Source of the DNA: Deltaproteobacteria bacterium GWC2_42_11
GTDB taxonomy: Bacteria; Desulfobacterota; GWC2-55-46; UBA9637; GWC2-42-11
Reading direction: 5' to 3'
DNA length: 64,000 nt
NCBI GenBank assembly: GCA_001797495.1
Contig: MGPS01000070.1
Coordinates: 15,879 to 79,878, forward strand
Position numbers and translations under genes: made by a program. The notes under the pieces were generated by a model. It saw nothing but the letters and a program-made list of their open reading frames with translations, was not told where the DNA came from and ran no database searches. Below, one piece after another: positions 9,436 through 40,206 of the stretch; position 1 is the first letter of the stretch, and each line of letters starts with the position of its first letter.

Positions 9436-9616
9436 TTTCCCCTGCTATGTTCGTGATTAGCAGAATATTCAGAACCAACACCATCAAATAGGGAGCCTTC
9501 CCTGACTGACAGCCGACAATCCTGCTGGACGGGAAGTCGAAAGCAGTTAATTAAGGCACCCACCTATTTTATAGGTTCGAATAGACTGCTGACACGGCAT
9601 TACAGCGGGGGAGATA
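9436..9616 (+). ncRNA. ssrS: 6S RNA (ssrS)
   Basis: It lies between zapA and 5-formyl-THF cyclo-ligase, as in many bacteria. The 5' end UUUCCCCUGCUAUGUUCGUG pairs with the 3' end CACGGCAUUACAGCGGGGGAGA to form a closing stem. An internal ACCUAUUUUAUAGGUUCGAAUAGACUGCUGAC region resembles the E. coli 6S central-bubble flank. Length is ~180 nt. Confidence 0.75.
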
Positions 9617-14174: not shown

Positions 14175-14372
14175 TAGTTTTTCTGGTGCGATTTTATATA
14201 GAGCGTCATAAATAATTACGCATCATAATCAATAAAACACAAGTATTTAATGCGTTTTATTTAAGCCATCAAATAGGTGATGGAGTTCACCTTTAACCGC
14301 TTTAATGGCTGATGACTCCTACAAATTATTGGGAACAGATTTAAAATCTGTCCCCAAAAGGAGGAGGCTGAC

Positions 14373-15533
14373 ATGAAGGCGGATTTTATTCCATTAGTTG
14401 TAGGTTTATTAGTCTTTATCTCAAGTCTGATTTCTTTAAGGGTTGGATTATCCGTAGCAATAATAGAGATACTCCTTGGAGCCATTGCAGGGAATCTGGG
14501 ACTTAAGACAGAGGATTGGATGATATATCTGGCAGGTTTTGGCGGGATTATTTTAACATTTCTGGCAGGAACTGAAATTGATACCCGGCTGATGAAGGAG
14601 AAATTCAAGGAAAGTTTTTTTATTGGTATATTTTCTTTTTTGGTTCCATTTATTGGGGTTTTTCTTTATACCTATCATATTGCAGATTGGTCACTATCCG
14701 CATCACTAATTGCAGGAACCGCATTGTCCACTACATCCCTTGCCGTGGTTTATTCAATTCTTGTGGAAACAGGTTTAACAAAGACGGAGATTGGTAAATT
14801 GATAATGGCATCTACATTTGTAACAGATATGGGGGTTGCGTTTGCAATGAGTATATTATTCATTAAACCTACTCTATATACCTTTGCCTTTATATCGATT
14901 TCTATTATTGTAATAATCTTTGCAATTAAATTTTCTCATTATATCTTTGACAATCCTGAACTAAAGAACAAGGTAGTTGAGCCAGAAATAAAATATATAT
15001 TCCTCCTCATCCTTATTTTTATATACTTTGCAAACATGGGAGATGGGCATGCGGTTCTGCCTGCATTTGTATTAGGACTTTTTATGTCAAGACATTTTAC
15101 CGAGACATCTGAGACAAAGGTAGTTCGGAATAGGCTCCGAACAGTTGCCTATGCAGTAATTACCCCAATATTTTTTGTTGTTGGCGGAATGAAGATTTCT
15201 TTGCCGCTTATTTTATCCGCATTTGGGCTCTTTGTTATCCTTTTTCTCCTCAAGATAGCGGCCAAGTTTATCGGTGTTTATTTTCTTGCAAAAAGATATA
15301 TCCCAGGTGGAAGTATGTACACCACACTTTTGATGAGTACAGGACTTACCTTTGGAACAATAGCGAGTGTATTTGGTTTAAATGCAGGTTTTATAAATCA
15401 GGTGCAGTACTCTGTTCTTGTTGGAGTAGTTGTGGCAAGCGCAGTAATCCCAACATTCATAGCCCAAAAGTGGTTTATGCCTGTTCACTCAGAGGATATA
15501 GTTGATATAAACGGCGATGACATAGATAGATAA
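14373..15533 (+). CDS. Cation:proton antiporter (CPA family Na+/H+ exchanger)
   Basis: Polytopic membrane protein with a Na_H_Exchanger-like helix pattern. Confidence 0.7.
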   Translation: MKADFIPLVVGLLVFISSLISLRVGLSVAIIEILLGAIAGNLGLKTEDWMIYLAGFGGIILTFLAGTEIDTRLMKEKFKESFFIGIFSFLVPFIGVFLYTYHIADWSLSASLIAGTALSTTSLAVVYSILVETGLTKTEIGKLIMASTFVTDMGVAFAMSILFIKPTLYTFAFISISIIVIIFAIKFSHYIFDNPELKNKVVEPEIKYIFLLILIFIYFANMGDGHAVLPAFVLGLFMSRHFTETSETKVVRNRLRTVAYAVITPIFFVVGGMKISLPLILSAFGLFVILFLLKIAAKFIGVYFLAKRYIPGGSMYTTLLMSTGLTFGTIASVFGLNAGFINQVQYSVLVGVVVASAVIPTFIAQKWFMPVHSEDIVDINGDDIDR

Positions 15534-15542
15534 CGGTGTAGA

Positions 15543-16742
15543 ATGTTTCAGCCTTTGAACAGTAAAACAGAACATAAGAAAATCTTTGGGTTCCAGAAAA
15601 ATGTTTTTGTTGCCGGTCTTGTAAGTCTTTTCATGGATATATCCTCTGAAATGATATATCCCCTTGTCCCGCTTTTTCTTGCAACTGTCCTTGGAACAAC
15701 TAAAACCACAATAGGTCTTATAGAAGGCATAGCAGAATCTACAGCCAGCATCTTAAAGGTCTTTTCAGGCTATCTTTCTGATGTGCTTGGCAGACGAAAA
15801 CTTCTGATGGCTATAGGCTATGGTGTATCTGTTTTAAGCAGGCCTGTAACGGCATTATCAACAACATGGTTCCATGTGCTTTTTGCAAGGTTTGTAGACA
15901 GGTTCGGCAAAGGCATAAGGACAGCGCCAAGGGATGCAATAATAGCAGATTCTGCAGATGGAAATAATCTCGGTAGGGCATTTGGTTTTCACAGGACAAT
16001 GGATACAATCGGCGCTGTTATAGGACCTGCCATTGCTTTTTTTATACTCCTGCTATTTGCAAATAATTTTAGACTTGTCTTCTGGCTTTCTCTGATACCG
16101 GGCATTATAGCGGTAATTTTAATAGTATTCTTTATCACTGAAAAGAGAAAAACAAGAGATGAACTTGCAAAATTGCCGAAGATTACATTCAAAGACTTTA
16201 ATGGAGACTTCAGGCACTATATAGTCGTGATTGCACTCTTTTCCATTGGCAATACAAGTGATGCATTCTTGATACTTCGGGCAGAAAATCTGGGGGTGAG
16301 TAAGGAATATATCCCGATAATCTATCTCATGTTCAATCTTGTATATTCTGTTTCATCAATGCCTTTAGGGATACTTGCGGATAAGATAGGCATGAGAAAG
16401 ATGATTATACTTGGGTTTATTTTTTACGCACTTATTTATTTTGGTTTTGGTATTGCAGACTCTTCATTCTATGTCCTACCGCTCTTCTGTCTTTACGGCA
16501 TATTCAAAGGCATGAGCGAAGGCACACAACGTGCCTATCTTGCAACCCTCGCACCACCTGAAAGGAAGGCAACTGCATTCGGAGTCTATCATACGGTTGT
16601 TGGAATCTCACTTTTGCCAGCAAGCATAATCGGCGGCATTTTGTGGGATAAAATCGGTGCAGAGGCAACATTCTTTTACGGGGCAGTTACAGGCTTTATT
16701 TCAGCAGTACTTTTCATTCTTCTGGTAAGGAACAGCAGGTAA
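15543..16742 (+). CDS. MFS transporter
   Basis: Twelve predicted TM segments. MFS loop motifs GRRKLL and DRFGKG are present. Confidence 0.7.
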   Translation: MFQPLNSKTEHKKIFGFQKNVFVAGLVSLFMDISSEMIYPLVPLFLATVLGTTKTTIGLIEGIAESTASILKVFSGYLSDVLGRRKLLMAIGYGVSVLSRPVTALSTTWFHVLFARFVDRFGKGIRTAPRDAIIADSADGNNLGRAFGFHRTMDTIGAVIGPAIAFFILLLFANNFRLVFWLSLIPGIIAVILIVFFITEKRKTRDELAKLPKITFKDFNGDFRHYIVVIALFSIGNTSDAFLILRAENLGVSKEYIPIIYLMFNLVYSVSSMPLGILADKIGMRKMIILGFIFYALIYFGFGIADSSFYVLPLFCLYGIFKGMSEGTQRAYLATLAPPERKATAFGVYHTVVGISLLPASIIGGILWDKIGAEATFFYGAVTGFISAVLFILLVRNSR

Positions 16743-24785: not shown

Positions 24786-24834
24786 GTTTTTTAGCCTATC
24801 AAAAGGTATCAGGATTGTAAATATTAAAAACAAT

Positions 24835-25018
24835 CCGTAAAATAGCGATTAAAAACCTCGCTATTTTACAAACCTGCGATTTGCCTGCCATACTTCGTTA
24901 TCGGACAATTTTTACTCCTCACCGTATCGGTGAACATACGGCTCGTCGTAAAAATTGTCCGCTGCCTCGTCTGGCAGGCAACTTGCAAGTTTCCCCAAAA
25001 ATCAAAGTCTATTTTTGG
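24835..25018. repeat. 184-nt structured dispersed element (family R1), copy 1
   Basis: More than 90% identical to 53828-54011. It contains several perfect hairpins (aaaatagcga/tcgctatttt; ggacaatttttac/gtaaaaattgtcc; gcctgcca/tggcaggc; cccaaaaat/atttttggg). Confidence 0.75.
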
Positions 25019-25142
25019 GCAATGGATAATGGTCTACGCTTGCAATAAATTTATCCTGTAATAAATCCTGTAATAAATTTATCCTTGACAACTTGAGTAG
25101 AATTGTATTATGAATTAACACACAATTTAATATAGATATATG

Positions 25143-25259
25143 CTTATTCAGAGTGGTGGAGGGACTGGCCCTGTGAAACCACAGCAACCGGCCTGTTGCA
25201 AACGGGCGGCAGGTGCTAACTCCAGCAAGGTTTGTGATTAAAAAGCCTTGAAAGATAAG
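25143..25259 (+). promoter_or_regulatory. SAM-I (S-box) riboswitch
   Basis: P1 pairs CUUAUUCAGAG with CUUGAAAGAUAAG. Conserved cores GGUGGAGGGACUGGCCC, GUGAAACC, CAGCAACC and GGUGCUAACUCCAGCA are present. Confidence 0.85.
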
Positions 25260-25274
25260 ATTAGGTAATAAAAG

Positions 25275-25307
25275 CCTCTTCTTGATTTCAAGAAGGGGTT
25301 TTTTTTT
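25275..25307 (+). terminator. Riboswitch expression-platform terminator
   Basis: gcctcttcttga-tttc-aagaagggg hairpin followed by a T9 run. Confidence 0.7.
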
Positions 25308-25341
25308 GCAAATCATCAAAAGAAACAATAAGGAGCAGGAT

Positions 25342-26595
25342 ATGAGTTATGTAAAAGGGCTTAAATGCAGGGAATGCGGGAAGGAGTATCCGAAAGAACC
25401 CTTGCATGTATGCGAGTACTGCTTTGGTCCCCTTGAGGTTAATTATGATTATGAGAAGATCAAAAGGGCAGTAAGCAGGGATATAATATCAAAACGACAG
25501 CCGAATATGTGGAGGTACAGAGAACTCCTGCCGATAGACGGTGAGCCGGCAGTAGGTTTTGATGTAGGTTATACCCCTCTGATAAGGGCAAAAAACCTTG
25601 CGAAGGCTCTCGGTGTAAAGGAGTTATATCTGAAAAACGATGCGGTAAATTATCCGACATTATCCTTTAAAGACAGGGTTGTTGCTGTAGCAATATCAAA
25701 GGCATTGGAATTCGATTTTAAGGTTGTTGCATGTGCGTCTACAGGTAACCTTGCAAATTCTGTTGCTGCAAATGCTGCTGCCTGCGGTATGGAAAGTTAT
25801 GTGTTCATCCCTTATGACCTTGAGCAGACAAAGATTTTAGGCACGCTTGTTTACGGCACAAACCTTGTTGCAATAAAGGGTAACTATGACGAAGTAAACA
25901 GGCTGTGCAGCGAGATAGCAGGCAAGTACGGCTGGGCATTCGTAAATATAAATATAAGACCTTATTATGCAGAGGGTTCAAAGGCATTCGGCTATGAGAT
26001 TGCAGAGCAGATGGGCTGGAAACTCCCAAAGCATATTGTTGTGCCAATGGCTGGAGGTTCCCTTATCACAAAGATATGGAAGGCATTCAAGGAATTCCAC
26101 AAACTTGGACTTATTGATAATCTTGGTACAAAGGTCTATGGTGCACAGGCAACAGGGTGTGCCCCGATTACCACAGCAGTGAAGGAAGGTGCAGAACTTA
26201 TAAAGCCTGTAAAACCGAATACAATTGCAAAATCCCTTGCCATAGGAAATCCGGCAGACGGCTTTTATGCTGCAAGGGTGATGAGGGAGAGCGGCGGTTG
26301 GGGAGAGGATGTGTCAGATGAGGAAATTATTGAGTCAATCAGACTTCTTGCTGAGACAGAAGGTATCTTTACTGAGACAGCAGGCGGCGTAACACTTGGG
26401 GTTACTAGAAAACTCATTGAGCAGGGAAGGATACCAAGGGATGAATCAATAGTTGTATCAATTACAGGCAACGGACTCAAGACACAGGAGGCACTTGCAG
26501 GACGGCTAACTGTTTCTATGACAATTGATGCAAAACTTTCTGATTTTGATGAACTACTGAAAAAGCAGAATAAGGTTTATGATGCGAAAGACTAA
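25342..26595 (+). CDS. Threonine synthase family PLP enzyme with N-terminal Zn ribbon; candidate O-phosphohomoserine-dependent homocysteine synthase (MetM-like)
   Basis: SFKDR PLP-lysine motif and the ThrC fold pattern are present. Start is at MSYVKGLKCRECG behind an AAGGAG RBS. The gene sits directly behind the SAM riboswitch and upstream of sulfur-carrier genes. Confidence 0.6.
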   Translation: MSYVKGLKCRECGKEYPKEPLHVCEYCFGPLEVNYDYEKIKRAVSRDIISKRQPNMWRYRELLPIDGEPAVGFDVGYTPLIRAKNLAKALGVKELYLKNDAVNYPTLSFKDRVVAVAISKALEFDFKVVACASTGNLANSVAANAAACGMESYVFIPYDLEQTKILGTLVYGTNLVAIKGNYDEVNRLCSEIAGKYGWAFVNINIRPYYAEGSKAFGYEIAEQMGWKLPKHIVVPMAGGSLITKIWKAFKEFHKLGLIDNLGTKVYGAQATGCAPITTAVKEGAELIKPVKPNTIAKSLAIGNPADGFYAARVMRESGGWGEDVSDEEIIESIRLLAETEGIFTETAGGVTLGVTRKLIEQGRIPRDESIVVSITGNGLKTQEALAGRLTVSMTIDAKLSDFDELLKKQNKVYDAKD

Positions 26596-26677
26596 CCAAT
26601 TTTGCAGGCACGGTTTCAACCGTGCTTTATTTGCACGAATAAATTCGTGCCTACATTTTTGAGGAAGGAGATAAAAT

Positions 26678-27637
26678 ATGAGCATAACAGACCATTTTAT
26701 AGAAGACAAGGTAACCCGAATTCCTGTCAAGAAAGAAGGACAGGATGTTAAGGTAGATTTTAATGAACTCAAATCCGGCGGTTTTATCAAGCAGAGGCAG
26801 AAGGATTTATTTACAGTAAGGCTCCGCTGCCCCGGAGGAAGGCTTACCACAAAGAAACTGATAGAACTTGCAAGGATTGCTGATAAATACAGCAAAAAGG
26901 GTGTTGTGCATTTGAGTTTCAGGCAGTCCCTTGAGATTCTGTATGTTGACTACAGAGACTTTGACGCATTGGTTGCTGACCTGAGAAATGTTGGGCATAA
27001 GGTTGCATCATGCGGCCCAAGGGTCAGGGTTCCGATTGCGTGCGGCGGCTGTGAATACAATCCGAATGGTCTTACGGATACACAAAAGATGGCTGAGATG
27101 GTTGATGAAAAATTCTTCGGTACATCAACCTATCATAAGTTTAAAATGTCGTTTTCAGGATGCCCTATTGACTGTGCCAGGACAAGGGAGGCTGATTTGG
27201 GGTTTCAGGGTGTTGTTGAGCCGGCATGGGATGAGGATACATGCACAGGATGCACAATATGTTCAAGGGCTTGCAAAGAAGGTGCGATTGTTTCACATCC
27301 TGAAACAGGCAAGCCCATATACGACCCTGCAAAGTGCATATACTGCGGAGACTGCATAAGGGCATGTCCTACAGAATCATGGAAGGCAGAAAGATACGGG
27401 CATTTTGTAAGGGTCGGTGGTAAGCACGGCAGACACCCGCGGGAGGCAAATGATGCTGCGGTATTTATCCCTGATGAAAAAGTTTCAAATGTAATAGAAA
27501 AGACGCTTGAGTGGTATAAGATAAACGGCAAAAAGGGAGAGAGGATAGGAACAACCATTGACAGAATAGGATTAAAAAGTTATATAGAGTTTATGAAAAA
27601 TACATTCAGTGATGCAACAATAATTACCGGAGTATAA
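26678..27637 (+). CDS. Small sulfite/nitrite reductase-like hemoprotein with a C-terminal 2x[4Fe-4S] ferredoxin domain
   Basis: Siroheme-[4Fe-4S] Cys motifs (CGGC...SGCPIDCA) are followed by CTGCTICSRAC and CIYCGDCIRACP. Confidence 0.6.
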   Translation: MSITDHFIEDKVTRIPVKKEGQDVKVDFNELKSGGFIKQRQKDLFTVRLRCPGGRLTTKKLIELARIADKYSKKGVVHLSFRQSLEILYVDYRDFDALVADLRNVGHKVASCGPRVRVPIACGGCEYNPNGLTDTQKMAEMVDEKFFGTSTYHKFKMSFSGCPIDCARTREADLGFQGVVEPAWDEDTCTGCTICSRACKEGAIVSHPETGKPIYDPAKCIYCGDCIRACPTESWKAERYGHFVRVGGKHGRHPREANDAAVFIPDEKVSNVIEKTLEWYKINGKKGERIGTTIDRIGLKSYIEFMKNTFSDATIITGV

Positions 27638-27638
27638 A

Positions 27639-27872
27639 ATGGATATAAAGATTGACAAATCCCTTGATTTAAGAAATGTCTTATGCCCAATAAATTTTGT
27701 TAAAACAAAACTTGCATTGGAAACAATGGAAAAGGGTCAGGTGCTTGAGGTTATTATAGATGACGGCGAACCTATTCAGAATGTCCCGAAAAGCGTTAAG
27801 GAAGAGGGGCATAAGATTGTTGAGGTAAAAAAGGAAGACAATCATTTTAGATTGAAGATAGAAAGAAGATAA
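27639..27872 (+). CDS. TusA-like sulfurtransferase
   Basis: LDLRNVLCPINFVKTKLAL matches the TusA/SirA LDxxGLxCPxP motif, with the second Pro replaced by Asn. Confidence 0.6.
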   Translation: MDIKIDKSLDLRNVLCPINFVKTKLALETMEKGQVLEVIIDDGEPIQNVPKSVKEEGHKIVEVKKEDNHFRLKIERR

Positions 27873-27880
27873 AAAACAGA

Positions 27881-27967
27881 TTAAAGACTGAAGACCCGAG
27901 ACTTCAGACACAAGACTCAAGACCACAGATTTAAGACTCAAAACTTTAGTCTATAGTCTTAAGTCTG
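27881..27967. repeat. TAGACT palindromic repeat element (family R3), copy B
   Basis: agactgaagac...aaactttagtctatagtcttaagtctg. Shares agtctatagtct and agac(t/c)-type units with 5187-5300 and 40112-40187. Confidence 0.6.
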
Positions 27968-27986
27968 CATTTAAACGGAGGTTAAG

Positions 27987-28268
27987 ATGGCAATAAAGGT
28001 AAGGATTCCAACACCACTCAGAAAACTTACAAATGGTAAGGATGAGGTAATAGGGGAAGGTAAGAATGTAAAGGAACTTATAAATAACATTGAGACACAG
28101 TATCCGGGATTAAAGGAAAGGATATGCGAGGAGGATGGGAAAATAAGGCGGTTTGTGAATATCTATGTAAATGACGAGGATATAAGATTTAAAAACAGCA
28201 TAGATACAGAACTGAAAGATAGTGATGAGGTTTCAATTATACCGGCAATAGCAGGGGGTAAGTTTTGA
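27987..28268 (+). CDS. MoaD/ThiS-family sulfur carrier protein (CysO/MetO-like)
   Basis: A 93-aa beta-grasp protein ending in the diglycine AIAGGKF is adjacent to E1-like and JAMM genes. Confidence 0.6.
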   Translation: MAIKVRIPTPLRKLTNGKDEVIGEGKNVKELINNIETQYPGLKERICEEDGKIRRFVNIYVNDEDIRFKNSIDTELKDSDEVSIIPAIAGGKF

Positions 28269-28501
28269 AGAAGAGGTTTTACCTTACATACCCAAAGGAA
28301 CTGATAAAAGAGCCGCTGATATATCAGGTAGGTAAACTCTACAATGTTATAACAAATATAAGGCAGGCAACTGTTTCAGATAATATTGGTCTTGTTGCCA
28401 TTGAACTTGACGGAGAGTCTGGAGATATAGAGAAGGCGCTAAACTATTTTGCTGAAAAGGGTGTTAAGGTAGAGCCTATTGAACTGGATGTGGTAGAGTA
28501 G
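28265..28501 (+). CDS. NIL-domain protein
   Basis: The pattern LIYQVGKLYNVITNIRQATV...GLVAIELDG...ALNYFAEKGVKVE resembles the MetN C-terminal NIL domain. Confidence 0.45.
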   Translation: MKKRFYLTYPKELIKEPLIYQVGKLYNVITNIRQATVSDNIGLVAIELDGESGDIEKALNYFAEKGVKVEPIELDVVE

Positions 28502-28623
28502 GTTGAAACAGTTTAGACCGTTCAAACCGTTTAAGTAATTATTATCAGGGTAAATTCGGGATAAGAGTTTGCCCTTTTTGTTTAAGAAGATTCTTTACCA
28601 TTCTTGTAAGGAAAGGTTATAAT

Positions 28624-29562
28624 ATGAGCATACAGCAAAAAATAATCTGGGGTTGCAAAAATCCGAAGGCTTCTGTTCTTGAACTTGTTGGGAATACGCC
28701 TCTTGTCAGGATTAACAGGATTACAGAGGGTTTGAGCAAGGGTGTTCAGGTCTATGCAAAACTTGAATCATATAACCCCGGCGGCTCTGTAAAGGACAGG
28801 GCAGCATTTGGTATGATAAAGGATGCAGAAGATGCAGGCAGACTCACAAAAGATAAGATTATACTTGATTCAACATCAGGGAATACAGGTATTGCTTATG
28901 CATGGATTGGCACTGTTAAGGGTTATTATGTTGAACTTGTTGTGCCTAAAAATGTGAGTGAAGAAAGGAAAAAGATTTTAAAGGCATTTGGTGCAAAGAC
29001 AATCTTTTCAAACCCGATGGAAGGCTCTGACGGTGCCATAAGGCTTGCATGGAAACTTTATGTTGAAAACCCGGATAAATACTGCAAACTAGACCAGTAC
29101 AATAATCCATCCAATCCTCAGGCACACTATGAGACAACAGGTCCTGAGATTATAGAGCAGACAGACGGCAGGGTTACGCACTTTGTTGCAGGGATAGGCA
29201 CAGGCGGAACAATAATGGGTACAGGCAGAAGGCTAAAGGAATTTAACCGTGCAATACAGGTAATAGCAGTTGAACCTGCAACAGCGCTTCATGGTCTTGA
29301 AGGTTTGAAACATATGCCGTCATCAATTGTTCCAGGCATATACCATGAGGGAGAACTTGACAGAAAAATATCAGCGCCAACAGAAGAATCCTATGGAATG
29401 GCAAAGAGACTGGCAAGGGAGGAAGGGCTTTTTGTGGGGCAGTCATCAGGCGCTGCGATGTGGGGGGCGCTTCAGGTTGCAAGGGAACTTGAGGAAGGCG
29501 TGGTTGTTGTTATATTTCCTGATGGGGGGGACAGGTATTTGTCCACAGCATTGTGGGACTAA
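28624..29562 (+). CDS. cysM: Cysteine synthase (CysM/CysK family, PLP-dependent)
   Basis: SVKDRAA lysine motif, TSGNTGIA and GIGTGGT loops are present. Confidence 0.8.
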   Translation: MSIQQKIIWGCKNPKASVLELVGNTPLVRINRITEGLSKGVQVYAKLESYNPGGSVKDRAAFGMIKDAEDAGRLTKDKIILDSTSGNTGIAYAWIGTVKGYYVELVVPKNVSEERKKILKAFGAKTIFSNPMEGSDGAIRLAWKLYVENPDKYCKLDQYNNPSNPQAHYETTGPEIIEQTDGRVTHFVAGIGTGGTIMGTGRRLKEFNRAIQVIAVEPATALHGLEGLKHMPSSIVPGIYHEGELDRKISAPTEESYGMAKRLAREEGLFVGQSSGAAMWGALQVARELEEGVVVVIFPDGGDRYLSTALWD

Positions 29563-29587
29563 GACAACATTCTGCGAATGTTGAATT

Positions 29588-29687
29588 GTAAATTGAAGAT
29601 TGGAAGTTGGAAATTTTAAAATGGAATAAAAAGACAATTTGCAATTTAAATTTTACAATTTTCATTTTACAATTAGAGCGAAGCGAC
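29588..29687 (+). repeat. 105-bp duplicated leader element, copy 1 (upstream of mec)
   Basis: Near-identical to 30083-30197. It contains tandem gaagattg/gaaaattg octamers, then ttgcaatttaaattttacaattttcattttacaattagagcgaagcgac ending at the start codon. Confidence 0.7.
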
Positions 29688-29688
29688 C

Positions 29689-30099
29689 ATGCTTTATCTA
29701 TCTAAAGACATATATAACGAGATTATCAGCCATGCTGAGAAATCATACCCTTATGAAGGATGCGGTGTTCTTGTAGGCAGGGATAAGAGGGTTGTGAAGA
29801 TTTGTCCTGTTGAGAACATAAACAAAGACAGGGCAAATGACAGGTATGAGATAGACCCAAAGGATTTGCTCAGGGTTGAGAAAGGGGTGTCCGAAAAAGG
29901 GCTGAATGTCCTTGGGTTTTTTCATTCACATCCTGACCATCCTGATATGCCGTCTGAGTTTGACAGACAAAGGGCATGGCAATTTTATTCGTATATGATT
30001 GTATCTGTGCATAATGGAAAATCTGTTTCAGTAAAATCATGGACATTTGAAGATGAAAATGAACCATTCAGAGAGGAGGAGGTAAAGATTGAAGATTGA
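29689..30099 (+). CDS. mec: JAMM/MPN+ metalloprotease (Mec-like sulfur-carrier peptidase)
   Basis: EGCG...HSHPDHPDMPSEFD JAMM motif. Confidence 0.8.
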   Translation: MLYLSKDIYNEIISHAEKSYPYEGCGVLVGRDKRVVKICPVENINKDRANDRYEIDPKDLLRVEKGVSEKGLNVLGFFHSHPDHPDMPSEFDRQRAWQFYSYMIVSVHNGKSVSVKSWTFEDENEPFREEEVKIED

Positions 30100-30197
30100 A
30101 AATTGAAAATTGGAAATTGGAAATTTTAAAATGGAATAAAAAGACAATTTGCAATTTAAATTTTGCAATTTTCATTTTACAATTAGAGCGAAGCGAC
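30083..30197 (+). repeat. 105-bp duplicated leader element, copy 2 (upstream of E1-like gene)
   Basis: See copy 1. The 5' part overlaps the last codons of mec. Confidence 0.7.
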
Positions 30198-31019
30198 ATG
30201 AATTTCACAGAAGAGCAAATAGAGAGATATTCAAGGCATATAATCCTGCCTGAGGTCGGCGGCAAAGGACAGGCAAAGTTATTAACTGCAAAGGTCTTTG
30301 TGCTTGGTGCAGGCGGGCTTGGATCACCTGCACTTTATTACCTTGCTGCAGCAGGTGTAGGCACAATCGGCATAGCAGATGCTGATTGTGTTGATTTATC
30401 TAACCTTCAGAGGCAGATAATCCATTCTACATCAAAAATAGGGCTGCCCAAAGTGGAGTCAGCAAAAAGGACTATTGAAGACTTAAACCCTGATGTAAAG
30501 GTTATTGCATACAACGAAAGGCTCAATATTGGCAACATAACACAGATAATAAGGGATTATGATGTAATTCTTGACGGCAGTGATAATTTCCCAACAAGAT
30601 TTCTGATGAACGATGCCTGCTTTTTTGAAAAAAAGACACTTGTTTCAGGGAGCATGTTCAGGTTTGATGGTCAGGTTACAATATTCCAGCCGCATGAGGG
30701 TAAGCCGTGCTACAGGTGTCTTTACCCTGAGCCCCCGCCAAAAGGGCTTGTACCCAGTTGTCAGGAAGCAGGCGTGCTCGGTGCACTGGCAGGCGTGATA
30801 GGTGTTATACAGGCAGTTGAGGCGATAAAACAGGTTTTAAAGATAGGCGATGAACTTGCAGGATACTTACTTATATTTGATGCACTTGCAATGACATTCA
30901 GAAAGGTTAAGGTCAGGAGAGACCCGCAGTGCAGCCTTTGCGGTGATAATCCGACAATAAAGGAACTGATTATGTATGAAGAGACGTGTGAGATAAGGGA
31001 AAAGAGGTGTGAAAAATAG
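30198..31019 (+). CDS. moeB: ThiF/MoeB-family E1-like sulfur-carrier adenylyltransferase
   Basis: GAGGLGS nucleotide-binding loop and CxxC...CxxC Zn motif are present. Start is taken at MNFTEEQIERYSRH; the track ORF starts inside the upstream repeat. Confidence 0.8.
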   Translation: MNFTEEQIERYSRHIILPEVGGKGQAKLLTAKVFVLGAGGLGSPALYYLAAAGVGTIGIADADCVDLSNLQRQIIHSTSKIGLPKVESAKRTIEDLNPDVKVIAYNERLNIGNITQIIRDYDVILDGSDNFPTRFLMNDACFFEKKTLVSGSMFRFDGQVTIFQPHEGKPCYRCLYPEPPPKGLVPSCQEAGVLGALAGVIGVIQAVEAIKQVLKIGDELAGYLLIFDALAMTFRKVKVRRDPQCSLCGDNPTIKELIMYEETCEIREKRCEK

Positions 31020-31048
31020 ATGGAAATCACGCATTATGGTATTTCTAT

Positions 31049-32263
31049 ATGAATAAGTATAAAACACTGCATAATCCTGCGTACCTCAAGATAGACCTTA
31101 TGCTTAACGGCATAAAGGCTGATAACGAGACTATCCAAAGACTCGGTTTAGACTTAAGATACGGTTATACAGGTGTTACAGGGGGACTGGATATTTTACT
31201 GCCTCATAATACATGGGTTAATGCATCGTTCCTTGAAGAGTTTGCAAAGTCCTCTAAATATGAACTTGTCTTAAGGGATAAAAAGACATTTATAAAGGCA
31301 GGAGATGAATCTGTTAAGGTTGATATTATGCCAAAGCCTGAGTTTTATAAACTGAGCACAGCAACAGGCATCCCTCTTTCAAAGATAGGGGCAATGCACG
31401 GCGGTTATGTGGCAATAACACCTGATACAAGGTGCGAGTTCTTTAACATGAATATAGAATGCAGATACTGTGCCGGGAATTTTAATTCCGGAGGCAGCGG
31501 CAGGGTCTATACAGTTGAAGAGGTTCTTGAGACTGTTGATGCTGCAAATAAGGAAGGCAAGGCAGAAATTGTTTATCTCTCAATCGGTTTTTCAGAGACA
31601 CCTGACGGAGGCATAGAATTTTTAAAACCTTATATAAAGGCGATAAAAAAGCACTTCAACACACTTGTTGCTGTAGAGGCGCTTCCGCCAAAGGAAAACC
31701 ATTTTATAGATGAGACTTATGCAGTAGGCGCTGATTCTGTTCTCTACAACATGGAGATATTTGATGAAAGGCTGTTTAAAGAGATATGTCCAGGAAGGGA
31801 TAGACTTATCGGAAGGGAAAGATACATAGATGCGCTTAAATATGCTGCGAAGGTATTTCCTAACGGCACAGTTGCAACACACCTGATTGTAGGACTTGAA
31901 CCCGCAGAGTCAACAATAAAAGGGATTGACTTCTTTACAGGTATAAGGGTTGTGCCTATACTTCCTATATACAGACCATCTGTCGGGGCTAATCTCCTCA
32001 ATTATAAAGTGCCTTCGCTGGATGATGTGCTGCCTGTTTACAGAGACCTGTATCATGCTGTAAAGAAGAATAAAATAAATATAAATTGGGTTAGGGATAT
32101 AAGTGTAATAACAACCCCTATTGAGGCAAGGTTTTTTGCAAAGACAAAGTTTAATAAGACTCTGATGGAAAGATTTTACAAAACAAAGTTAGGCGTTAAG
32201 ACTGCGTGGGGACTTTCAACATTACGGAGGAAACTGCGGGTTAGAGAAGGCGGGGAAGGATAA
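31049..32263 (+). CDS. Conserved hypothetical protein with a CX8CX2C motif (possible non-canonical radical-SAM/TIM-barrel enzyme)
   Basis: The Cys triad TRCEFFNMNIECRYCAG is followed by glycine-rich SGGSGR. No confident family assignment from sequence alone. Confidence 0.3.
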   Translation: MNKYKTLHNPAYLKIDLMLNGIKADNETIQRLGLDLRYGYTGVTGGLDILLPHNTWVNASFLEEFAKSSKYELVLRDKKTFIKAGDESVKVDIMPKPEFYKLSTATGIPLSKIGAMHGGYVAITPDTRCEFFNMNIECRYCAGNFNSGGSGRVYTVEEVLETVDAANKEGKAEIVYLSIGFSETPDGGIEFLKPYIKAIKKHFNTLVAVEALPPKENHFIDETYAVGADSVLYNMEIFDERLFKEICPGRDRLIGRERYIDALKYAAKVFPNGTVATHLIVGLEPAESTIKGIDFFTGIRVVPILPIYRPSVGANLLNYKVPSLDDVLPVYRDLYHAVKKNKININWVRDISVITTPIEARFFAKTKFNKTLMERFYKTKLGVKTAWGLSTLRRKLRVREGGEG

Positions 32264-32265
32264 TA

Positions 32266-33693
32266 ATGAATGTAGTTATAGACAAAAGACCTATATGGGT
32301 TATACTTTTATCAAGGTCTTTAAGACCTTTGTTTTTTGTAGTTGTTGCCATTATTTTCTGGTATCTTGTAAGTATTCCCACACCGGACGGGCTTGGTTTA
32401 GAGGGACAGAGGACTATAGCGCTTTTTGTTGTGTGCCTTATACTGTGGGTTTCAGGGGTTCTGCCCCTTGCTATAACAAGTCTTCTTGCGATTGTAATGG
32501 TGCCGCTTTTAGGGGTGCTGGATAAAAAGGCAGCATATGCACTTTTTGGGAATGAGGCTGTATTTTTTATACTTGGTGCGTTTATACTTTCAGGCGCTGT
32601 AATGCATTCAGGGCTTGCAGGCAGGACAGCAGTAGTAATAATGAGCAGATTCGGAGAGACGCCAAAGAGACTCATTGCATCCATCTTTTTCCTTGCTGCA
32701 GTTCTCTCGTTTTTTATGTCAGAGCATGCTGTTGCTGCCATGTTCTTCCCGATTGTGCTTGAGATAGCAAAGGGTCTGAATCTAAAGCCAGGAAAATCAG
32801 TTTATGCAAAATCACTCTTTCTTGCACTTGCGTGGGGCTGCATAATTGGCGGTGTTGCAACATTTTTAGGAGGGGCAAGGGTCCCGCTTGCAGTAGGTAT
32901 GCTTAAGGAGGCAACAGGTATAAATATAGGTTTTTTTGAATATACGGCTGCAGCATTTCCAACGGTCTTAATAATGCTGCTTATAGGTTATTTTATGCTT
33001 ACAAAATTTTTACCTTCAGATGTTGAGGACATACATAAGATAAAGGCAGTCTTTGAAAGGAAGATAAAAGAACTTGGGAAGATAGGTTATGCTGAATATG
33101 CAGTAGGCGTCTTAATGGCAGTAACCATATTTTTATGGCTGTTTCTGGGCAGGACAATTGGCATTGCAAATATTGCGATTGCCTCTGTAGTTGTTTTATT
33201 TGTGTTTAAACTTGTAAGATGGAAAGATATTGAAGAGTATGTGAACTGGGGGATAATACTTATGTATGGAGGCGCTATAACACTTGGCGCAGCAATGGAA
33301 AAATCAGGTGCAGCAGCATGGATAGCAAATACAGTTATAAGCGAATGGGCAAGGAGCCCTTTGATAATTATAGCGATACTTTCTTTGCTGACGATACTAC
33401 TGACAGAAGGGATGAGCAATGCCGCTGTTATTGCAATACTTCTGCCTGTGGGGATTGGCATAGCAGGAAAATTTAATCTTGACCCCAGGATTATTACTTA
33501 CACTATTGCAATTCCGGCAGGGCTTGCGTTCTGCTTCCCGATGTCAACACCTGCGAATGCAATAGCAGTATCATCAGGGTATGTAACAGCAAGAGATATG
33601 GCAAAGGCAGGGGTTTTAATGATGATATCAGCATGGGTGCTGTTTAATATAACTGTATTTATTTACTGGCCGCTTATAGGGATAAAAATATGA
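32266..33693 (+). CDS. Anion permease (SLC13/DASS - ArsB/NhaD superfamily), putative sulfate transporter
   Basis: About 12-14 TM segments in an internally repeated architecture. Sits within the sulfur assimilation context. Confidence 0.55.
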   Translation: MNVVIDKRPIWVILLSRSLRPLFFVVVAIIFWYLVSIPTPDGLGLEGQRTIALFVVCLILWVSGVLPLAITSLLAIVMVPLLGVLDKKAAYALFGNEAVFFILGAFILSGAVMHSGLAGRTAVVIMSRFGETPKRLIASIFFLAAVLSFFMSEHAVAAMFFPIVLEIAKGLNLKPGKSVYAKSLFLALAWGCIIGGVATFLGGARVPLAVGMLKEATGINIGFFEYTAAAFPTVLIMLLIGYFMLTKFLPSDVEDIHKIKAVFERKIKELGKIGYAEYAVGVLMAVTIFLWLFLGRTIGIANIAIASVVVLFVFKLVRWKDIEEYVNWGIILMYGGAITLGAAMEKSGAAAWIANTVISEWARSPLIIIAILSLLTILLTEGMSNAAVIAILLPVGIGIAGKFNLDPRIITYTIAIPAGLAFCFPMSTPANAIAVSSGYVTARDMAKAGVLMMISAWVLFNITVFIYWPLIGIKI

Positions 33694-34154
33694 GTTGCGT
33701 ACTTCTAATACTATCAACATCAAGGACATCGCAGAATGCCATTGAATATGCTGTTGACCTTGCAAAAAAGGGAAAGGCTAAACTCGTTGTCCTCTATATA
33801 ATAGAGACTGAACTTACAAATGAGGTCTTTGATAAATTTACAGACATAGGTTTCATTGGCGATAAGCCGTCAACTCAACTGACTGAAGCAATCATGAAGG
33901 AATACCGGCAGCGCGGTTATGAGGAGATGGGTAAGGTTCAAATCAGGGCAATGGAAGAGAATGTTGATTTTGATGCTGTTACGACACAGGGTGATTTTGT
34001 TGAAAAGGCCATTGAAGTGATTGATAGGTACAAGGTTACAACAGCAGTAGCAATAAAAAGGAAGAGGTCTGCATTTTTAAAATATTTTTCAAAATCAGTA
34101 GTTGATGAACTTGTTGAAAAGGCGCCGTGCAAGGTAGAGGTATTTGAAGAGTAA
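33690..34154 (+). CDS. Universal stress protein (UspA family)
   Basis: About 150 aa with the Usp alpha/beta pattern (KLVVLYII...VVDELVEKAPCKVEV). Confidence 0.6.
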   Translation: MSCVLLILSTSRTSQNAIEYAVDLAKKGKAKLVVLYIIETELTNEVFDKFTDIGFIGDKPSTQLTEAIMKEYRQRGYEEMGKVQIRAMEENVDFDAVTTQGDFVEKAIEVIDRYKVTTAVAIKRKRSAFLKYFSKSVVDELVEKAPCKVEVFEE

Positions 34155-34168
34155 AAAAAGGAGATGAT

Positions 34169-34780
34169 ATGATTCAGCAGAAGGCTACAAACATTAAATG
34201 GCATCATGGGAAGATTACAAGAGACGACAGAGTGAAACTTATGAAGCAGAAGGGTGTGACTATATGGCTTACAGGTCTTTCTGGTTCAGGGAAATCAACG
34301 ATTGCTGTTGAACTTGAGCATGCGCTTCTTGAAAACAGACATCAGGCATATATATTAGACGGTGATAATATTAGATATGGTTTGAATAAAAATCTTGGCT
34401 TCTCACCAGAGGACAGGTCTGAAAATATTCGTAGAATTGGCGAGGTTGCAAAACTGTTTACCGATGCAAATATTATAACAATTACAGCATTCATATCACC
34501 ATACAGTGCTGACAGGGACAATGCCAGAAAATTTCAAAAAGAAGGTGAGTTTGTGGAGGTCTATGTGAAATGCCCACTTAAGGTATGCGAGGAGAGGGAT
34601 ACAAAGGGATTATATAAAAAGGCAAGGGCAGGTGAGGTGAAAGAATTTACCGGCATATCAGCGCCATATGAAGAACCCTTAAATTCGGAGATAACCATTG
34701 ATACATCAAAACTTTCTGTTGAGGAGTCAACGAGGGTTATTTTGAATTATCTGGAGAAGAAGGGGTATATAAAATTTTAA
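34169..34780 (+). CDS. cysC: Adenylyl-sulfate kinase
   Basis: P-loop GLSGSGKST, APS-binding FISPY and DGDNIR motifs are present. Confidence 0.9.
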   Translation: MIQQKATNIKWHHGKITRDDRVKLMKQKGVTIWLTGLSGSGKSTIAVELEHALLENRHQAYILDGDNIRYGLNKNLGFSPEDRSENIRRIGEVAKLFTDANIITITAFISPYSADRDNARKFQKEGEFVEVYVKCPLKVCEERDTKGLYKKARAGEVKEFTGISAPYEEPLNSEITIDTSKLSVEESTRVILNYLEKKGYIKF

Positions 34781-34813
34781 TTATAAAGACTGTTTTTTTA
34801 AGCGGGGGGAGTT

Positions 34814-35905
34814 ATGGTCAAGAAGGATATTAATAAAGAATTAGAAAGACTTAAGGCGGAAAAGAATGAACTGGAGAGGATAAATAAGGAGATTGACGGC
34901 AGGGTGCTTGAGCTGTACATGCTTTATAATGTCAGCAAGATACTTAATCTGAGCCTGAACATTGAAGAGATTTTCAACGGCATAATAAATATTATCGGGA
35001 AAACCATTCATATTGACGAGTTCTGTATCATGCTGCTTGATGAAGCCACTCAGAAACTTGTGGTAAGGGCATGGTATCCCAACAGCGGTACACTACCTGA
35101 TATGTCTTTTGATATAGGTGAGGGCATTTCTGGCACTGTGGCAAAAACAGGTAATGCAATGCTGATTCAGGATACAAGAAAAGAGCCGAATTTTATGTTT
35201 TATAAAGGGGTTAAGATGGACATAGGTGCCTTCATGTCCATTCCACTGACAGGTAAGAAAGGGGATGTACTCGGCGTGTTTAACATTCATAAGAAAGAGC
35301 CTTTTTCTTTTACAGAGAACGACAGGAAGTTTTTCCAAGAGGTGGCAAATCAGATAGCGATAGCAGTAGAAAATGCAATAATATACGACAGGGCCCGGGA
35401 GGCTTCAATGCATGACGAACTTACAGGTCTTTATAACAGAAGATATTTTTTTGAGTATATTGAAAAAGAACTGGCAAGGGCGAACAGGTATAAAAAGAGT
35501 TTTTCAATTTTAATGATAGATATAGACAGTTTTAAGAATTTTAATGATAAAAATGGTCACCTCAAGGGTGATAAGGTCTTAAAAGAGACTGCAAAACTGT
35601 TTGTAAGTAACTTAAGGGCTTCTGATGTGGTTGTGCGGTTCGGTGGAGAGGAGTTTATATGCCTTATCCCTGAGACACCCAAAGAGATAGCGGTAACTAC
35701 TGCTGAAAAACTCAGGAGGGCGGTAGAAGAAAACATATATAAAGGCGGTGAGAACCAGCCCGGCGGGAAGGTAACAATTACAATAGGCGTTGCAACATGG
35801 CCTGACGATGCACAGTCTGCAATTGAACTGATTGACTATGCTGATAAGGCTATGTATCTGGGTAAGTGCAAAGGGAAGAATATTGTTTTCCCGCTGGTCA
35901 AATAA
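34814..35905 (+). CDS. GAF-domain diguanylate cyclase (GGDEF)
   Basis: A coiled-coil and GAF N-terminal half precede a C-terminal GGDEF domain with an intact RFGGEEF active site. Confidence 0.8.
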   Translation: MVKKDINKELERLKAEKNELERINKEIDGRVLELYMLYNVSKILNLSLNIEEIFNGIINIIGKTIHIDEFCIMLLDEATQKLVVRAWYPNSGTLPDMSFDIGEGISGTVAKTGNAMLIQDTRKEPNFMFYKGVKMDIGAFMSIPLTGKKGDVLGVFNIHKKEPFSFTENDRKFFQEVANQIAIAVENAIIYDRAREASMHDELTGLYNRRYFFEYIEKELARANRYKKSFSILMIDIDSFKNFNDKNGHLKGDKVLKETAKLFVSNLRASDVVVRFGGEEFICLIPETPKEIAVTTAEKLRRAVEENIYKGGENQPGGKVTITIGVATWPDDAQSAIELIDYADKAMYLGKCKGKNIVFPLVK

Positions 35906-35923
35906 TTCAAGAGGGCTGCAAAT

Positions 35924-36640
35924 ATGAGGATTGAAGACCTTACAGAAGAGACGTTAAAACAACTGAATGCAATGCCTGCAGATGAACTCATCAGATGGGC
36001 ATTTGATAATTTTGGTGAAAGGGCTGCAATAGGCACTAGTTTTCAATTGACAGGCACAGTAATTATTGATATTGCCAACAGGCATTTAAAAAAAATCAGG
36101 GTGTTTACTATAGATACCCTGCGGCTGCACCCAGAGACATATGAGGCACTCAATAATACTGAAGAAAGATATGGGTTGGCAGTGGAGAGGTTTTACCCTG
36201 ATGAAGATACATTAAAAAATATGCTGGAAAGGTTTGGAGAATACCTCTTTTTCATGGACAAGGCTAAACAGGAATACTGCTGTTTTGTACGAAAGGTTGA
36301 GCCGAACAGGCGCGCACTTAAAACACTTGATGTCTGGATAACAGGTTTGAGGAGAGACCAGTCGGATTACAGGAAAGATGTGCCAAAGGCATCTGTAATT
36401 GAAGAGGACAGCAGGAAGATATTAAAGATATCTCCGCTTGCTGACTGGGATATGGATAAGATATGGCACTATATAAAAGAGAACAATGTGCCATACAATA
36501 AACTCTTTGATATGGACTATGACAGCATCGGCTGCATAATATGCTCAACACCCCTTGTTGAAGGCGAGCCGCCCCGCTCAGGCAGGTGGAGGTGGTTTCA
36601 TAAAGAGGATGATAAGAAGGAGTGCGGGATACATAAATAG
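35924..36640 (+). CDS. cysH: Phosphoadenosine phosphosulfate / adenylylsulfate reductase (thioredoxin-dependent)
   Basis: PAPS_reduct fold with a C-terminal ECGIH catalytic Cys motif. Confidence 0.8.
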   Translation: MRIEDLTEETLKQLNAMPADELIRWAFDNFGERAAIGTSFQLTGTVIIDIANRHLKKIRVFTIDTLRLHPETYEALNNTEERYGLAVERFYPDEDTLKNMLERFGEYLFFMDKAKQEYCCFVRKVEPNRRALKTLDVWITGLRRDQSDYRKDVPKASVIEEDSRKILKISPLADWDMDKIWHYIKENNVPYNKLFDMDYDSIGCIICSTPLVEGEPPRSGRWRWFHKEDDKKECGIHK

Positions 36641-36775
36641 TTCACGCTGAAGAATGTCCATCTGCGGCGTTGTTGCTGCAGCTTCTGCGCTCAACATACT
36701 ACAAAGTATGCCTCGCTTGAAGCCTTGCTCCGCCTTGCATCTGTGCCATTCTTGAGCATGAACTTGTTGTGAAGT
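36638..36775 (+). repeat. Dispersed intergenic repeat family R2, shorter copy
   Basis: agttcacgctga...ctgcggcgttgttgctgcagcttctgcgctcaacatactacaaagtatgcctcgcttgaagccttgctccgccttgca. It begins at the cysH stop codon. Confidence 0.65.
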
Positions 36776-36805
36776 ATTTTCATTTTAGAAAAGGAGGCAT
36801 AAATA

Positions 36806-37963
36806 ATGCCAGGTTTGATTGAGCCGCATGGCGGTAAACTTGTAAACATGATACTGGAGGGAAAGGAGAGAGAAGATGCTCTAGAGAGGTCAAAGAAACT
36901 TAAGAAGGTGATTTTGAATGACAGGGAAGTTTCTGATATTGAGATGATTGCAATCGGTGCTTTCAGTCCTTTGGACGGCTTTATGAAAAGGGATGACTAC
37001 CACAGTGTTATGGACAATATGAAACTATCAAATGGTCTTCCGTGGACAATACCTATTACCCTGTCAGTTACAAATGATGAGGCAGCGGATCTGAAGGAAG
37101 GGGAAGATGTAAGCCTTGTCAATAAAGATGGGGAGATACTTGCTGTTATGCAGATTGAAGAAAAGCACAACCACGATAAGGAAAAGGAGTCGCTGCAGGT
37201 TTATGGGACAGGGGATATGGCACATCCCGGTGTTGCAAAGGTTTTTGAGATGAGAGATGTCCTGCTTGGAGGCAGGGTATCAGTTGTGCACAGGATAAAA
37301 CAGGAAAAATTTAATCAATACAGGCTTGACCCAGAAGAAACAAGGACGTTATTCAAGGAGAAGGGATGGAAAAGGGTTGTAGGTTTCCAGACAAGAAATC
37401 CTATACACAGGGCACATGAATATATCCAGAAATGTGCGATGGAGGTTGTTGACGGACTGATGATACACCCGATTGTAGGTGAGACAAAGGGTGATGATAT
37501 ATCTGCAGATGTAAGGATGAAATGCTACGAGGTTCTCCTTGAAAACTATTATCCGAAAGACAGGGTTATGCTTGTTGTTAATCCTGCAGCGATGAGGTAT
37601 GCAGGCCCAAAAGAGGCAATATTCCATGCCCTTATAAGGAAGAACTACGGTTGTACCCATTTTATTGTGGGGAGAGACCATGCAGGGGTTGGCAACTACT
37701 ACGGTTCCTTCGATGCCCATTATATATTTGATGAGTTTGACCCGCAGGAGATAGGCATAACACCGATGTTCTTTGACCATACATTCTACTGCAAAAGATG
37801 TGAAAGTATGACGTCGTACAAGACATGCCCGCATGACTCCAGTTGTCATATTACGCTTTCCGGGACAAAGGTTAGGGAGATGCTGAAGGCAGGAGTCATC
37901 CCGCCTGCTGAGTTTTCAAGACATGAGGTTGCAAAGATTTTAATAGATGCGATGAAGCAGTAG
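36806..37963 (+). CDS. sat: Sulfate adenylyltransferase (ATP sulfurylase)
   Basis: QTRNPIHRAHE and GRDHAG motifs are present. Confidence 0.9.
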   Translation: MPGLIEPHGGKLVNMILEGKEREDALERSKKLKKVILNDREVSDIEMIAIGAFSPLDGFMKRDDYHSVMDNMKLSNGLPWTIPITLSVTNDEAADLKEGEDVSLVNKDGEILAVMQIEEKHNHDKEKESLQVYGTGDMAHPGVAKVFEMRDVLLGGRVSVVHRIKQEKFNQYRLDPEETRTLFKEKGWKRVVGFQTRNPIHRAHEYIQKCAMEVVDGLMIHPIVGETKGDDISADVRMKCYEVLLENYYPKDRVMLVVNPAAMRYAGPKEAIFHALIRKNYGCTHFIVGRDHAGVGNYYGSFDAHYIFDEFDPQEIGITPMFFDHTFYCKRCESMTSYKTCPHDSSCHITLSGTKVREMLKAGVIPPAEFSRHEVAKILIDAMKQ

Positions 37964-38975: not shown

Positions 38976-39140
38976 AATAGTTAACGTTGAAAATACCCCG
39001 GCCCATTGCTTTGCAATGGGTGCCCCGTGCGTTGTCGCTGCGGCTTCTGCGCTCAACATACTGCAAAAGTATGCCCCCCGACAGTTTCAATCGGGGGTTT
39101 GCTCCGCCTTGCAGATGGGCAATTTTTGAGCGTCAACTAC
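38976..39140 (+). repeat. Dispersed intergenic repeat family R2, full-length copy
   Basis: aatagttaacgttgaaaatacccc...cccattgctttgcaatgggtgccccgtgcgttgtcgctgcggcttctgcgctcaacatactgcaaaagtatgcc...ttgctccgccttgcagatgggcaatttttgagcgtcaac. Confidence 0.7.
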
Positions 39141-39174
39141 CAATAAAATGTATTGTTAAGAGGTAGAGTATATA

Positions 39175-40131: not shown

Positions 40132-40187
40132 AGTAGACCATAGACTAAAGACTAAAAAGTCTAAAGTCTATAGTCTAAAGTCTAAAC
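40112..40187. repeat. TAGACT palindromic repeat element (family R3), copy C
   Basis: gcagactatagactttaaagtagaccatagactaaagactaaaaagtctaaagtctatagtctaaagtctaaac. It supplies the last codons and stop of speB. Confidence 0.65.
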
Positions 40188-40206
40188 AAGAAGGAGGACT
40201 TGAAAA

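Follow-up and report, generated by a model that had tools for sequence, protein, structure and literature searches.

Why should a riboswitch for S-adenosylmethionine (SAM) precede a gene that homology identifies as threonine synthase? The question is raised by a 64,000-nucleotide stretch (hereafter the window) of Deltaproteobacteria bacterium GWC2_42_11, comprising positions 15,879 to 79,878 of contig MGPS01000070.1 (assembly GCA_001797495.1, forward strand), in which a SAM-I (S-box) leader at 25141–25261 lies upstream of a gene of the threonine synthase (ThrC) family at 25342–26595, both on the + strand. The initial annotation of this DNA had recognized the riboswitch, considered its target unusual for SAM control, and proposed that the gene serves a methionine pathway. 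The analysis described here leads to a more specific answer, namely that the leader very probably shuts off transcription of an operon that makes homocysteine with the aid of a carrier protein, the first gene of which encodes an enzyme of the MetM type.

This reading draws on the MetM/MetO pathway of Streptomyces albulus (Hasebe et al. 2024, Appl Environ Microbiol 90:e01247-24, as referred to in the GapMind 2026 preprint). As outlined in that preprint, MetO is a sulfur carrier that is matured by Mec and to which MoeZ ligates sulfur, while MetM is a MetO-thiocarboxylate-dependent homocysteine synthase acting on O-phosphohomoserine that is ‘often misannotated’ as threonine synthase; in addition, a 2025 mSystems paper (PMC12172450) places a SAM riboswitch upstream of S. 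albulus metM. The window resembles this Streptomyces system in that a threonine-synthase homologue stands beside a ThiS/MoaD-type carrier, accompanied by a JAMM peptidase (Mec) and an E1 (MoeZ), with the riboswitch 5′ of the enzyme gene and with the enzyme misnamed in the same way. Because this gene set behind a SAM riboswitch matches the MetM/MetO pattern, the product of 25342–26595 is predicted to be a homocysteine synthase that uses O-phosphohomoserine. The likeness is drawn from gene context and from the presence of a SAM riboswitch. The pairing of switch and target, at first considered unusual, is therefore a known one, since MetM was published in 2024 and the S. albulus metM riboswitch has been reported. 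Literature searches for ThrC-like or carrier genes under an S-box returned no relevant earlier report.

The linkage of enzyme and carrier recurs well beyond this contig. A comparison set of 80 loci, with orthologues at 60–86% identity, was assembled from 185,579 species-representative genomes. The closest orthologues belong to groundwater Deltaproteobacteria/Thermodesulfobacteriota metagenome-assembled genomes (MAGs), and the more distant ones carry labels such as Acidobacteriota/Terriglobia, Omnitrophota, Nitrospinae, Armatimonadota, Planctomycetota, Latescibacterota, Methylomirabilota and Actinomycetota, among others, with at least ten phylum-level labels represented. In 68 loci the enzyme gene has a ThiS-like carrier gene close by in the same orientation; in 11 of the 12 carrier-negative loci the contig ends too early downstream, or before the position that the carrier occupies in close relatives, and in one (L052) no carrier gene was found in about 7 kb of downstream sequence. 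Throughout these relatives the carrier retains the C-terminal motif PAIAGG or a near variant of it, ending at the GG in 26 loci, followed by a tail of 1–4 residues in 28, with in-frame fusion to a NIL domain in eight or to an E1 in two, while genes for JAMM, E1 and CysM proteins are recurrent in the vicinity. This carrier adjacency, together with the MetM/MetO precedent, bears out the methionine-pathway function initially proposed. In the two loci with the carrier–E1 fusion (L025, 8277–9347, and L063, 8244–9317) the E1 sequence begins straight after the GG, so that release of the carrier would need cleavage at this point.

The aptamer was identified by a full-length match to the Rfam covariance model RF00162 (positions 1–108 of 108) at 25141–25261, scoring 81.5 bits against a gathering threshold of 44.4, with an E-value of 1.2e-17 for the 64-kb window. 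This was the sole SAM match in an Rfam scan of the window, and a permissive scan (E ≤ 1) of 24800–32400, long intergenic spacers included, found no other RNA element. The core motifs on which the riboswitch had first been called are all in place, GGTGGAGGGACTGGCCC at 25155–25171, GTGAAACC at 25173–25180, CAGCAACC at 25182–25189 and GGTGCTAACTCCAGCA at 25212–25227, and the strands of P1 are CUUAUU (25143–25148) and GAUAAG (25254–25259). Folded alone, the aptamer adopts the expected P1–P4 arrangement (−38.7 kcal/mol), and the P2 loop CUGG (25165–25168) is able to form a pseudoknot with CCAG in J3/4 (25222–25225), compensatory variants of which occur among related leaders. A custom covariance model built from 18 leaders of related loci assigns the window aptamer 113.6 bits. 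In an alignment of 40 leaders, which had itself been fitted to the covariance model, 98.6% of cells are paired and 11 pairs, distributed over P1, P2, P3 and P4, show compensatory changes; none of 500 shuffles reached the observed pairing and covariation values, and slid registers likewise fell far below them. Judged by sequence and fold, the leader is a standard RF00162 member with a standard attenuation platform, and it is predicted to bind SAM.

Downstream of the aptamer lies the hairpin that would constitute the OFF state, an intrinsic terminator at 25270–25307 identified by folding and by comparison with related leaders. Its core stem pairs GCCUCUUCUUG (25274–25284) with CAAGAAGGGGU (25289–25299) across an AUUU loop (25285–25288), preceded by an A-tract (25270–25273) and running into a T9 stretch (25299–25307), with a stability of −21.9 kcal/mol, flanking A/U pairs included. 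As noted in the initial annotation, the hairpin and T9 stand before the ribosome-binding site, AAGGAG at 25330–25335, itself 6 nt 5′ of the ATG at 25342. An intrinsic terminator is present in essentially all 40 related leaders, and the consensus of its 5′ arm, CCUCUUCUUAUC, is complementary to the P1 3′ strand, GAUAAGAAG.

The competing ON-state helix, the antiterminator, spans 25247–25292 and is the minimum free energy structure for transcripts truncated at 25290–25296, in which the 3′ arm of the terminator is still incomplete. It is composed of three helices, pairing CUUGAAA (25247–25253) with UUUCAAG (25286–25292), UAAGA (25256–25260) with UCUUG (25280–25284), and AGGU (25263–25266) with GCCU (25274–25277). 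Since these helices take up the 5′ arm and loop of the terminator as well as the 3′ strands of P4 and P1, the antiterminator excludes P1 and the terminator alike. Folding accommodates all three alternatives, P1, antiterminator and terminator, on which the attenuation proposed at the outset depends. Further support comes from related leaders (L040 and L050/L059) in which GAUGAGA in the P1 3′ strand goes with UCUCAU(C) in the P1 5′ strand and in the terminator arm alike, a three-way covariation that is predicted by the P1/antiterminator/terminator model. The isolated antiterminator helix has a predicted stability of −14.1 kcal/mol, and when pairs are enforced over the whole leader, P1 plus terminator (the OFF state) reaches −57.8 kcal/mol as against −49.8 kcal/mol for the ON state. 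With the OFF state the lower in energy, the outcome would be decided kinetically during transcription, as is likewise the case in classical S-box leaders. The longest contiguous complement, compared with shuffles, was also tried as an antiterminator metric; it proved uninformative because the strands are purine-rich and pyrimidine-rich, respectively, and was replaced by truncated-transcript folding and three-way covariation.

Transcription of the leader may start from a putative sigma-70-type promoter at 25085–25111 (+), read by eye, with a −35 element TTGACA (25085–25090) and a −10 element TATTAT (25106–25111). The 15-nt spacer lies outside the 16–18 nt range of the consensus scan, which explains its absence from the output, and the assignment of this pair as the leader promoter is a weak one. 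The promoter that the scan did propose, at 25115–25144, was dismissed, as its −10 element would set the transcription start within P1. Abutting the putative −35 TTGACA are tandem copies of AATAAATTTATCCT at 25044–25057 and 25072–25085, with a shortened copy at 25060–25069; these repeats are a candidate protein-binding site and could provide a second layer of control.

The initial annotation named a single regulated gene. The metM-like gene is indeed the first, but the unit behind the switch contains at least five genes on the same strand, two of which, encoding small TusA and NIL proteins, occupy what had appeared to be long intergenic spacers. The first, 25342–26595, encodes 417 residues (PF00291, 240.8 bits), and its product aligns with orthologues from residue 1 when translated from the ATG at 25342. 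It is followed by a gene for a small sulfite/nitrite-reductase-like protein of 319 residues with two 4Fe-4S ferredoxin motifs (26678–27637; PF01077 91 bits, PF03460 64 bits), which is kept 3′ of the metM-like gene in close relatives and against which the AsrC and DsrAB models scored far under their cut-offs. Next are a TusA-family sulfurtransferase of 77 residues (27639–27872; PF01206, 82.8 bits), a counterpart of which was found in 21 related loci, and, 1.4 kb 3′ of the metM-like gene, the ThiS/MoaD-type sulfur carrier (27987–28268; PF02597, 66.3 bits), a MetO/CysO-like protein of 93 residues ending in PAIAGG-KF. The last gene, 28265–28501, encodes a NIL-domain protein of 78 residues (PF09383, 51.1 bits) from a TTG start that overlaps the stop codon of the carrier gene. 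The region immediately 5′ of the carrier gene (27874–27986) contains dense AAGACT/AGTCTT repeats and a hairpin, CTGAAGACCCGAGACTTCAG, that lacks a T-run.

Beyond the unit the same strand continues with sulfur genes. These include cysM (28624–29562; TIGR01138, 394.5 against a cut-off of 394.2), a JAMM/Mec-like peptidase (29689–30099; PF14464, 92.9 bits; JAMM motif HSHPDHPDMPSEFD) and a ThiF/MoeB-type E1 (open reading frame 30096–31019, likely start 30198; PF00899, 273 bits), followed by a variant radical SAM protein (31049–32263), a Na/sulfate symporter (32266–33693), a Usp protein (33690–34154), cysC (34169–34780), a GGDEF protein (34814–35905), cysH (35924–36640) and sat (36806–37963). Taken together, the genes behind the riboswitch form a complete co-directional island leading from sulfate to cysteine and homocysteine. 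The E1 matches MoeZ/MoeB models through its adenylation domain only (for instance positions 13–275 of 392 in NF005902) and so lacks the rhodanese domain, a missing function for which TusA and the sulfite reductase-like protein may stand in.

How far into this island does SAM control reach? The alternative with the best standing, though an unlikely one, is that the riboswitch governs the whole of it from the metM-like gene to sat (about 12.6 kb, 16 genes), throttling all of sulfate assimilation. All genes within 25342–37963 are on the + strand and many of their junctions are short or overlapping. Many relatives lack a terminator after the NIL gene; L013 and L014, for example, have none between the NIL gene and the next. 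In the window, however, the NIL gene is followed by a terminator-like hairpin with a T-run at 28547–28584 (hairpin 28547–28575, +, found by sequence scan), which is probably the 3′ end of the SAM-controlled unit, and by a promoter-like site at 28594–28623 (10 of 12 consensus positions) just 5′ of cysM. Moreover, four loci (L003, L006, L008 and L069) carry the five-gene module with no cysM, JAMM or E1 gene after it, as would be expected of an autonomous unit. Together these three observations suggest that SAM control ends before cysM. A hairpin comparable to that of the window is found after the NIL gene in some relatives only, and since it is not kept in all of them we infer the 3′ limit of the operon rather than read it from conservation. 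In L012 (about 4800–4860) and L017 (about 10735–10795) the NIL gene is followed by a near-identical AT-rich element with two TTGAC motifs, …TTCTTGACAAAATTA[C/G]TAATGTATTATAAACTTGAC[A/T]ATACTACTAAGGTATT…, a possible promoter or operator of the cysM unit.

Placing the five-gene unit under SAM control still leaves the chemistry of its first enzyme to be weighed. The 417-residue protein is of fold-type II, dependent on pyridoxal phosphate (PLP), and carries a CxxC...CxxC ribbon at its N terminus as well as an SFKDR PLP-lysine motif; both are conserved, the latter in 74 of 77 orthologues. Several findings count against its assignment as MetM. It exceeds the cut-offs of both threonine-synthase equivalog models, with 295.6 bits for TIGR00260 (cut-off 167.1) and 308.8 for NF006050 (cut-off 303), and its nearest structures in the PDB, which lack the first ~55 residues of the window protein, are genuine ThrC enzymes (E-values of 1e-51 to 1e-58), so that MetM and ThrC are inseparable by sequence alone. 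Threonine synthase is also the name given in public sources to the protein itself and to all of its relatives among the at least 120 proteins listed, in agreement with the homology-based label first given to the target; the 100%-identical entry is that of Deltaproteobacteria bacterium GWC2_42_11, and the same sequence is also present on metagenome contigs of ENA and JGI. S. albulus MetM entered this comparison by description, and the match to it is thus an orthologue-level one by gene context. Finally, SAM control is common but not universal in the family. Under the custom covariance model a same-strand SAM-I aptamer was found in 39 of the 80 loci; it lies directly 5′ of the enzyme gene in 35 (in L040, 5′ of a small NIL gene) and 5′ of preceding genes of the same operon in four (L013, L014, L021 and L065). 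Four of the 80 loci have no upstream sequence. About half of the loci lack the aptamer, and Rfam scans of a sample of nine of these (from Nitrospinae, Armatimonadota, Fervidibacter, an Actinomycetota MAG and others) revealed no riboswitch of any class.

TIGR00260 evidently admits MetM-type proteins, and a score above its cut-off is accordingly no proof of ThrC function. If the enzyme is not a threonine synthase, it might still perform a different sulfur incorporation, either a sulfite addition of the kind catalyzed by cysteate synthase or cysteine formation from O-phosphoserine, with SAM control reflecting the general sulfur economy. Cysteate synthase is a ThrC paralogue, its model TIGR03844 aligned to the whole protein including the N-terminal ribbon (residues 7–383), and both a sulfite reductase-like gene and cysH are present in the cluster. 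We nevertheless judge this very unlikely, as the TIGR03844 score is 65.1 bits against a cut-off of 324.9, the cluster has a CysM of its own at the cysM cut-off, the adjacent carrier fits MetM/MetO, and SAM-I riboswitches are found overwhelmingly on methionine and SAM genes. The ribbon was considered separately as a MetM signature and dropped, because models of archaeal-type ThrC and of cysteate synthase also align from about residue 7. As for threonine synthesis itself, the plant enzyme is activated by SAM. The reading that scores, structures and public names would favor, a real threonine synthase repressed by SAM so as to balance O-phosphohomoserine between threonine and methionine, is hardly tenable, since its regulatory logic is reversed (high SAM would stop threonine synthesis), threonine synthesis requires neither the carrier linked to the enzyme in 68 of 80 loci nor JAMM, E1 or CysM, and the GapMind 2026 preprint records the same misannotation for MetM.

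The MetM-type reading, in conjunction with the leader architecture, suggests the following sequence of events. Transcription would start some 20–50 nt 5′ of 25141. At low SAM the antiterminator would form by pairing of 25247–25260 (3′ strands of P4 and P1) with 25274–25292, allowing the polymerase to enter the operon. When SAM is abundant, its binding by the four-way-junction aptamer would lock P1 and P4, freeing the 5′ arm of the terminator so that the hairpin 25274–25299 forms and transcription stops at the T9. Read-through under SAM shortage would lead to expression of the whole five-gene unit, from the MetM-like enzyme and the reductase-like protein through TusA and the carrier to the NIL protein. 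Sulfite made by CysH would then be reduced, with the sulfite reductase-like protein and TusA supplying reduced sulfur, and the carrier, once adenylated by the E1 encoded in the following unit, would receive it; given the lack of a rhodanese domain in this E1, delivery may run via TusA. The MetM-like enzyme would convert O-phosphohomoserine to homocysteine at the expense of the C-terminal thiocarboxylate of the carrier, whose KF tail the JAMM peptidase, also encoded in the following unit, would trim and/or whose product it would release, while CysM would make cysteine from the same carrier or from sulfide.

Within this scheme the conserved NIL partner is the least explained feature. Of the 80 loci, 39, drawn from many phyla, have a NIL gene adjoining that of the carrier, and in the eight fusions mentioned above (L013, L014, L021, L024, L026, L028, L029 and L075) the domain follows the carrier GG in frame. 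NIL domains are otherwise found in MetN and in methanogen homocysteine genes, and literature searches combining the NIL domain with sulfur carriers returned nothing relevant. A tentative proposal, which we regard as possible without favoring it, is that the five-gene unit is a self-contained sulfite-to-homocysteine module in which carrier loading by the reductase and TusA replaces that by rhodanese-containing MoeZ, and that the NIL protein is an unrecognised core component of the MetM/MetO system, for example a methionine-sensing or carrier-docking subunit.

Comparison with established systems delineates what is shared and what differs. The leader resembles the S-box leaders of Bacillus subtilis (yitJ and metI, also RF00162) in its four-helix aptamer with pseudoknot, in the competition between P1, antiterminator and terminator, and in the predicted SAM-OFF attenuation, but it occurs in another phylum and controls a carrier-thiocarboxylate pathway, whereas the B. 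subtilis leaders control transsulfuration, methylation or SAM-synthetase genes. With respect to the proteins, the CysO–CysM–Mec–MoeZ system of Mycobacterium tuberculosis makes cysteine and is not known to be SAM-regulated. As in that pathway, cysM, JAMM and E1 genes adjoin a ThiS-like carrier in the window, and CysM scores at the equivalog cut-off; here, in contrast, the carrier apparently serves the MetM-like enzyme and its gene lies inside the SAM-controlled unit. A protein-thiocarboxylate route to methionine involving HcyS, HcyD, HcyF and MetY was reportedly described in Wolinella succinogenes by Krishnamoorthy and Begley in 2011. It is said to comprise a ThiS-like carrier whose C-terminal extension is trimmed off by a JAMM protease, an E1 for its adenylation and a sulfite reductase encoded nearby, and to yield homocysteine, all of which the window shares by gene content or by prediction, but to employ as acceptor enzyme an O-acetylhomoserine sulfhydrylase of fold-type I rather than, as here, a fold-type II ThrC homologue for which O-phosphohomoserine is the predicted substrate. 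Relative to S. albulus, the window E1 lacks the rhodanese domain of MoeZ, the operon adds the sulfite reductase-like, TusA and NIL genes, and the host is an uncultured groundwater Deltaproteobacteria/Thermodesulfobacteriota MAG.

The pathway and the link between riboswitch and metM were thus previously known, and what is added here is their occurrence in uncultured Deltaproteobacteria and several other phyla, with a different set of accessory proteins (sulfite reductase-like protein, TusA, NIL protein and rhodanese-less E1). The SAM-I regulon, and with it the reported riboswitch–metM link, is extended well past Streptomyces, and the NIL, TusA and small reductase-like genes are pointed to as accessories of the MetM/MetO pathway. 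The public naming of this carrier-linked, SAM-regulated family as threonine synthase looks like a systematic misannotation. Thousands of close relatives bear that label and, like the window protein, exceed the cut-offs of the NCBI ThrC equivalog models, and riboswitch and carrier synteny place them in methionine synthesis. For uncultured groundwater Deltaproteobacteria, Acidobacteriota, Omnitrophota, Latescibacterota, Methylomirabilota and Planctomycetota, this would alter both the metabolism as reconstructed and the auxotrophies predicted.

Three further features of the window lie outside the sulfur island. A 6S RNA at 9436–9615 (+; RF00013, 84.1 bits) precedes a gene for 5-formyltetrahydrofolate cyclo-ligase (9978–10583), an order that corresponds to the classical ssrS–ygfA arrangement. 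A fluoride riboswitch at 14267–14328 (+; RF01734, 62.3 bits) lies 5′ of genes for a CPA2-like cation:proton antiporter (14373–15533) and an MFS transporter (15543–16742). Straight after sat, at 38001–41681 on the + strand, is a polyamine gene set encoding a deoxyhypusine/homospermidine-synthase-like protein, an agmatinase, a pyruvoyl-dependent arginine decarboxylase and a RimK-family ligase.

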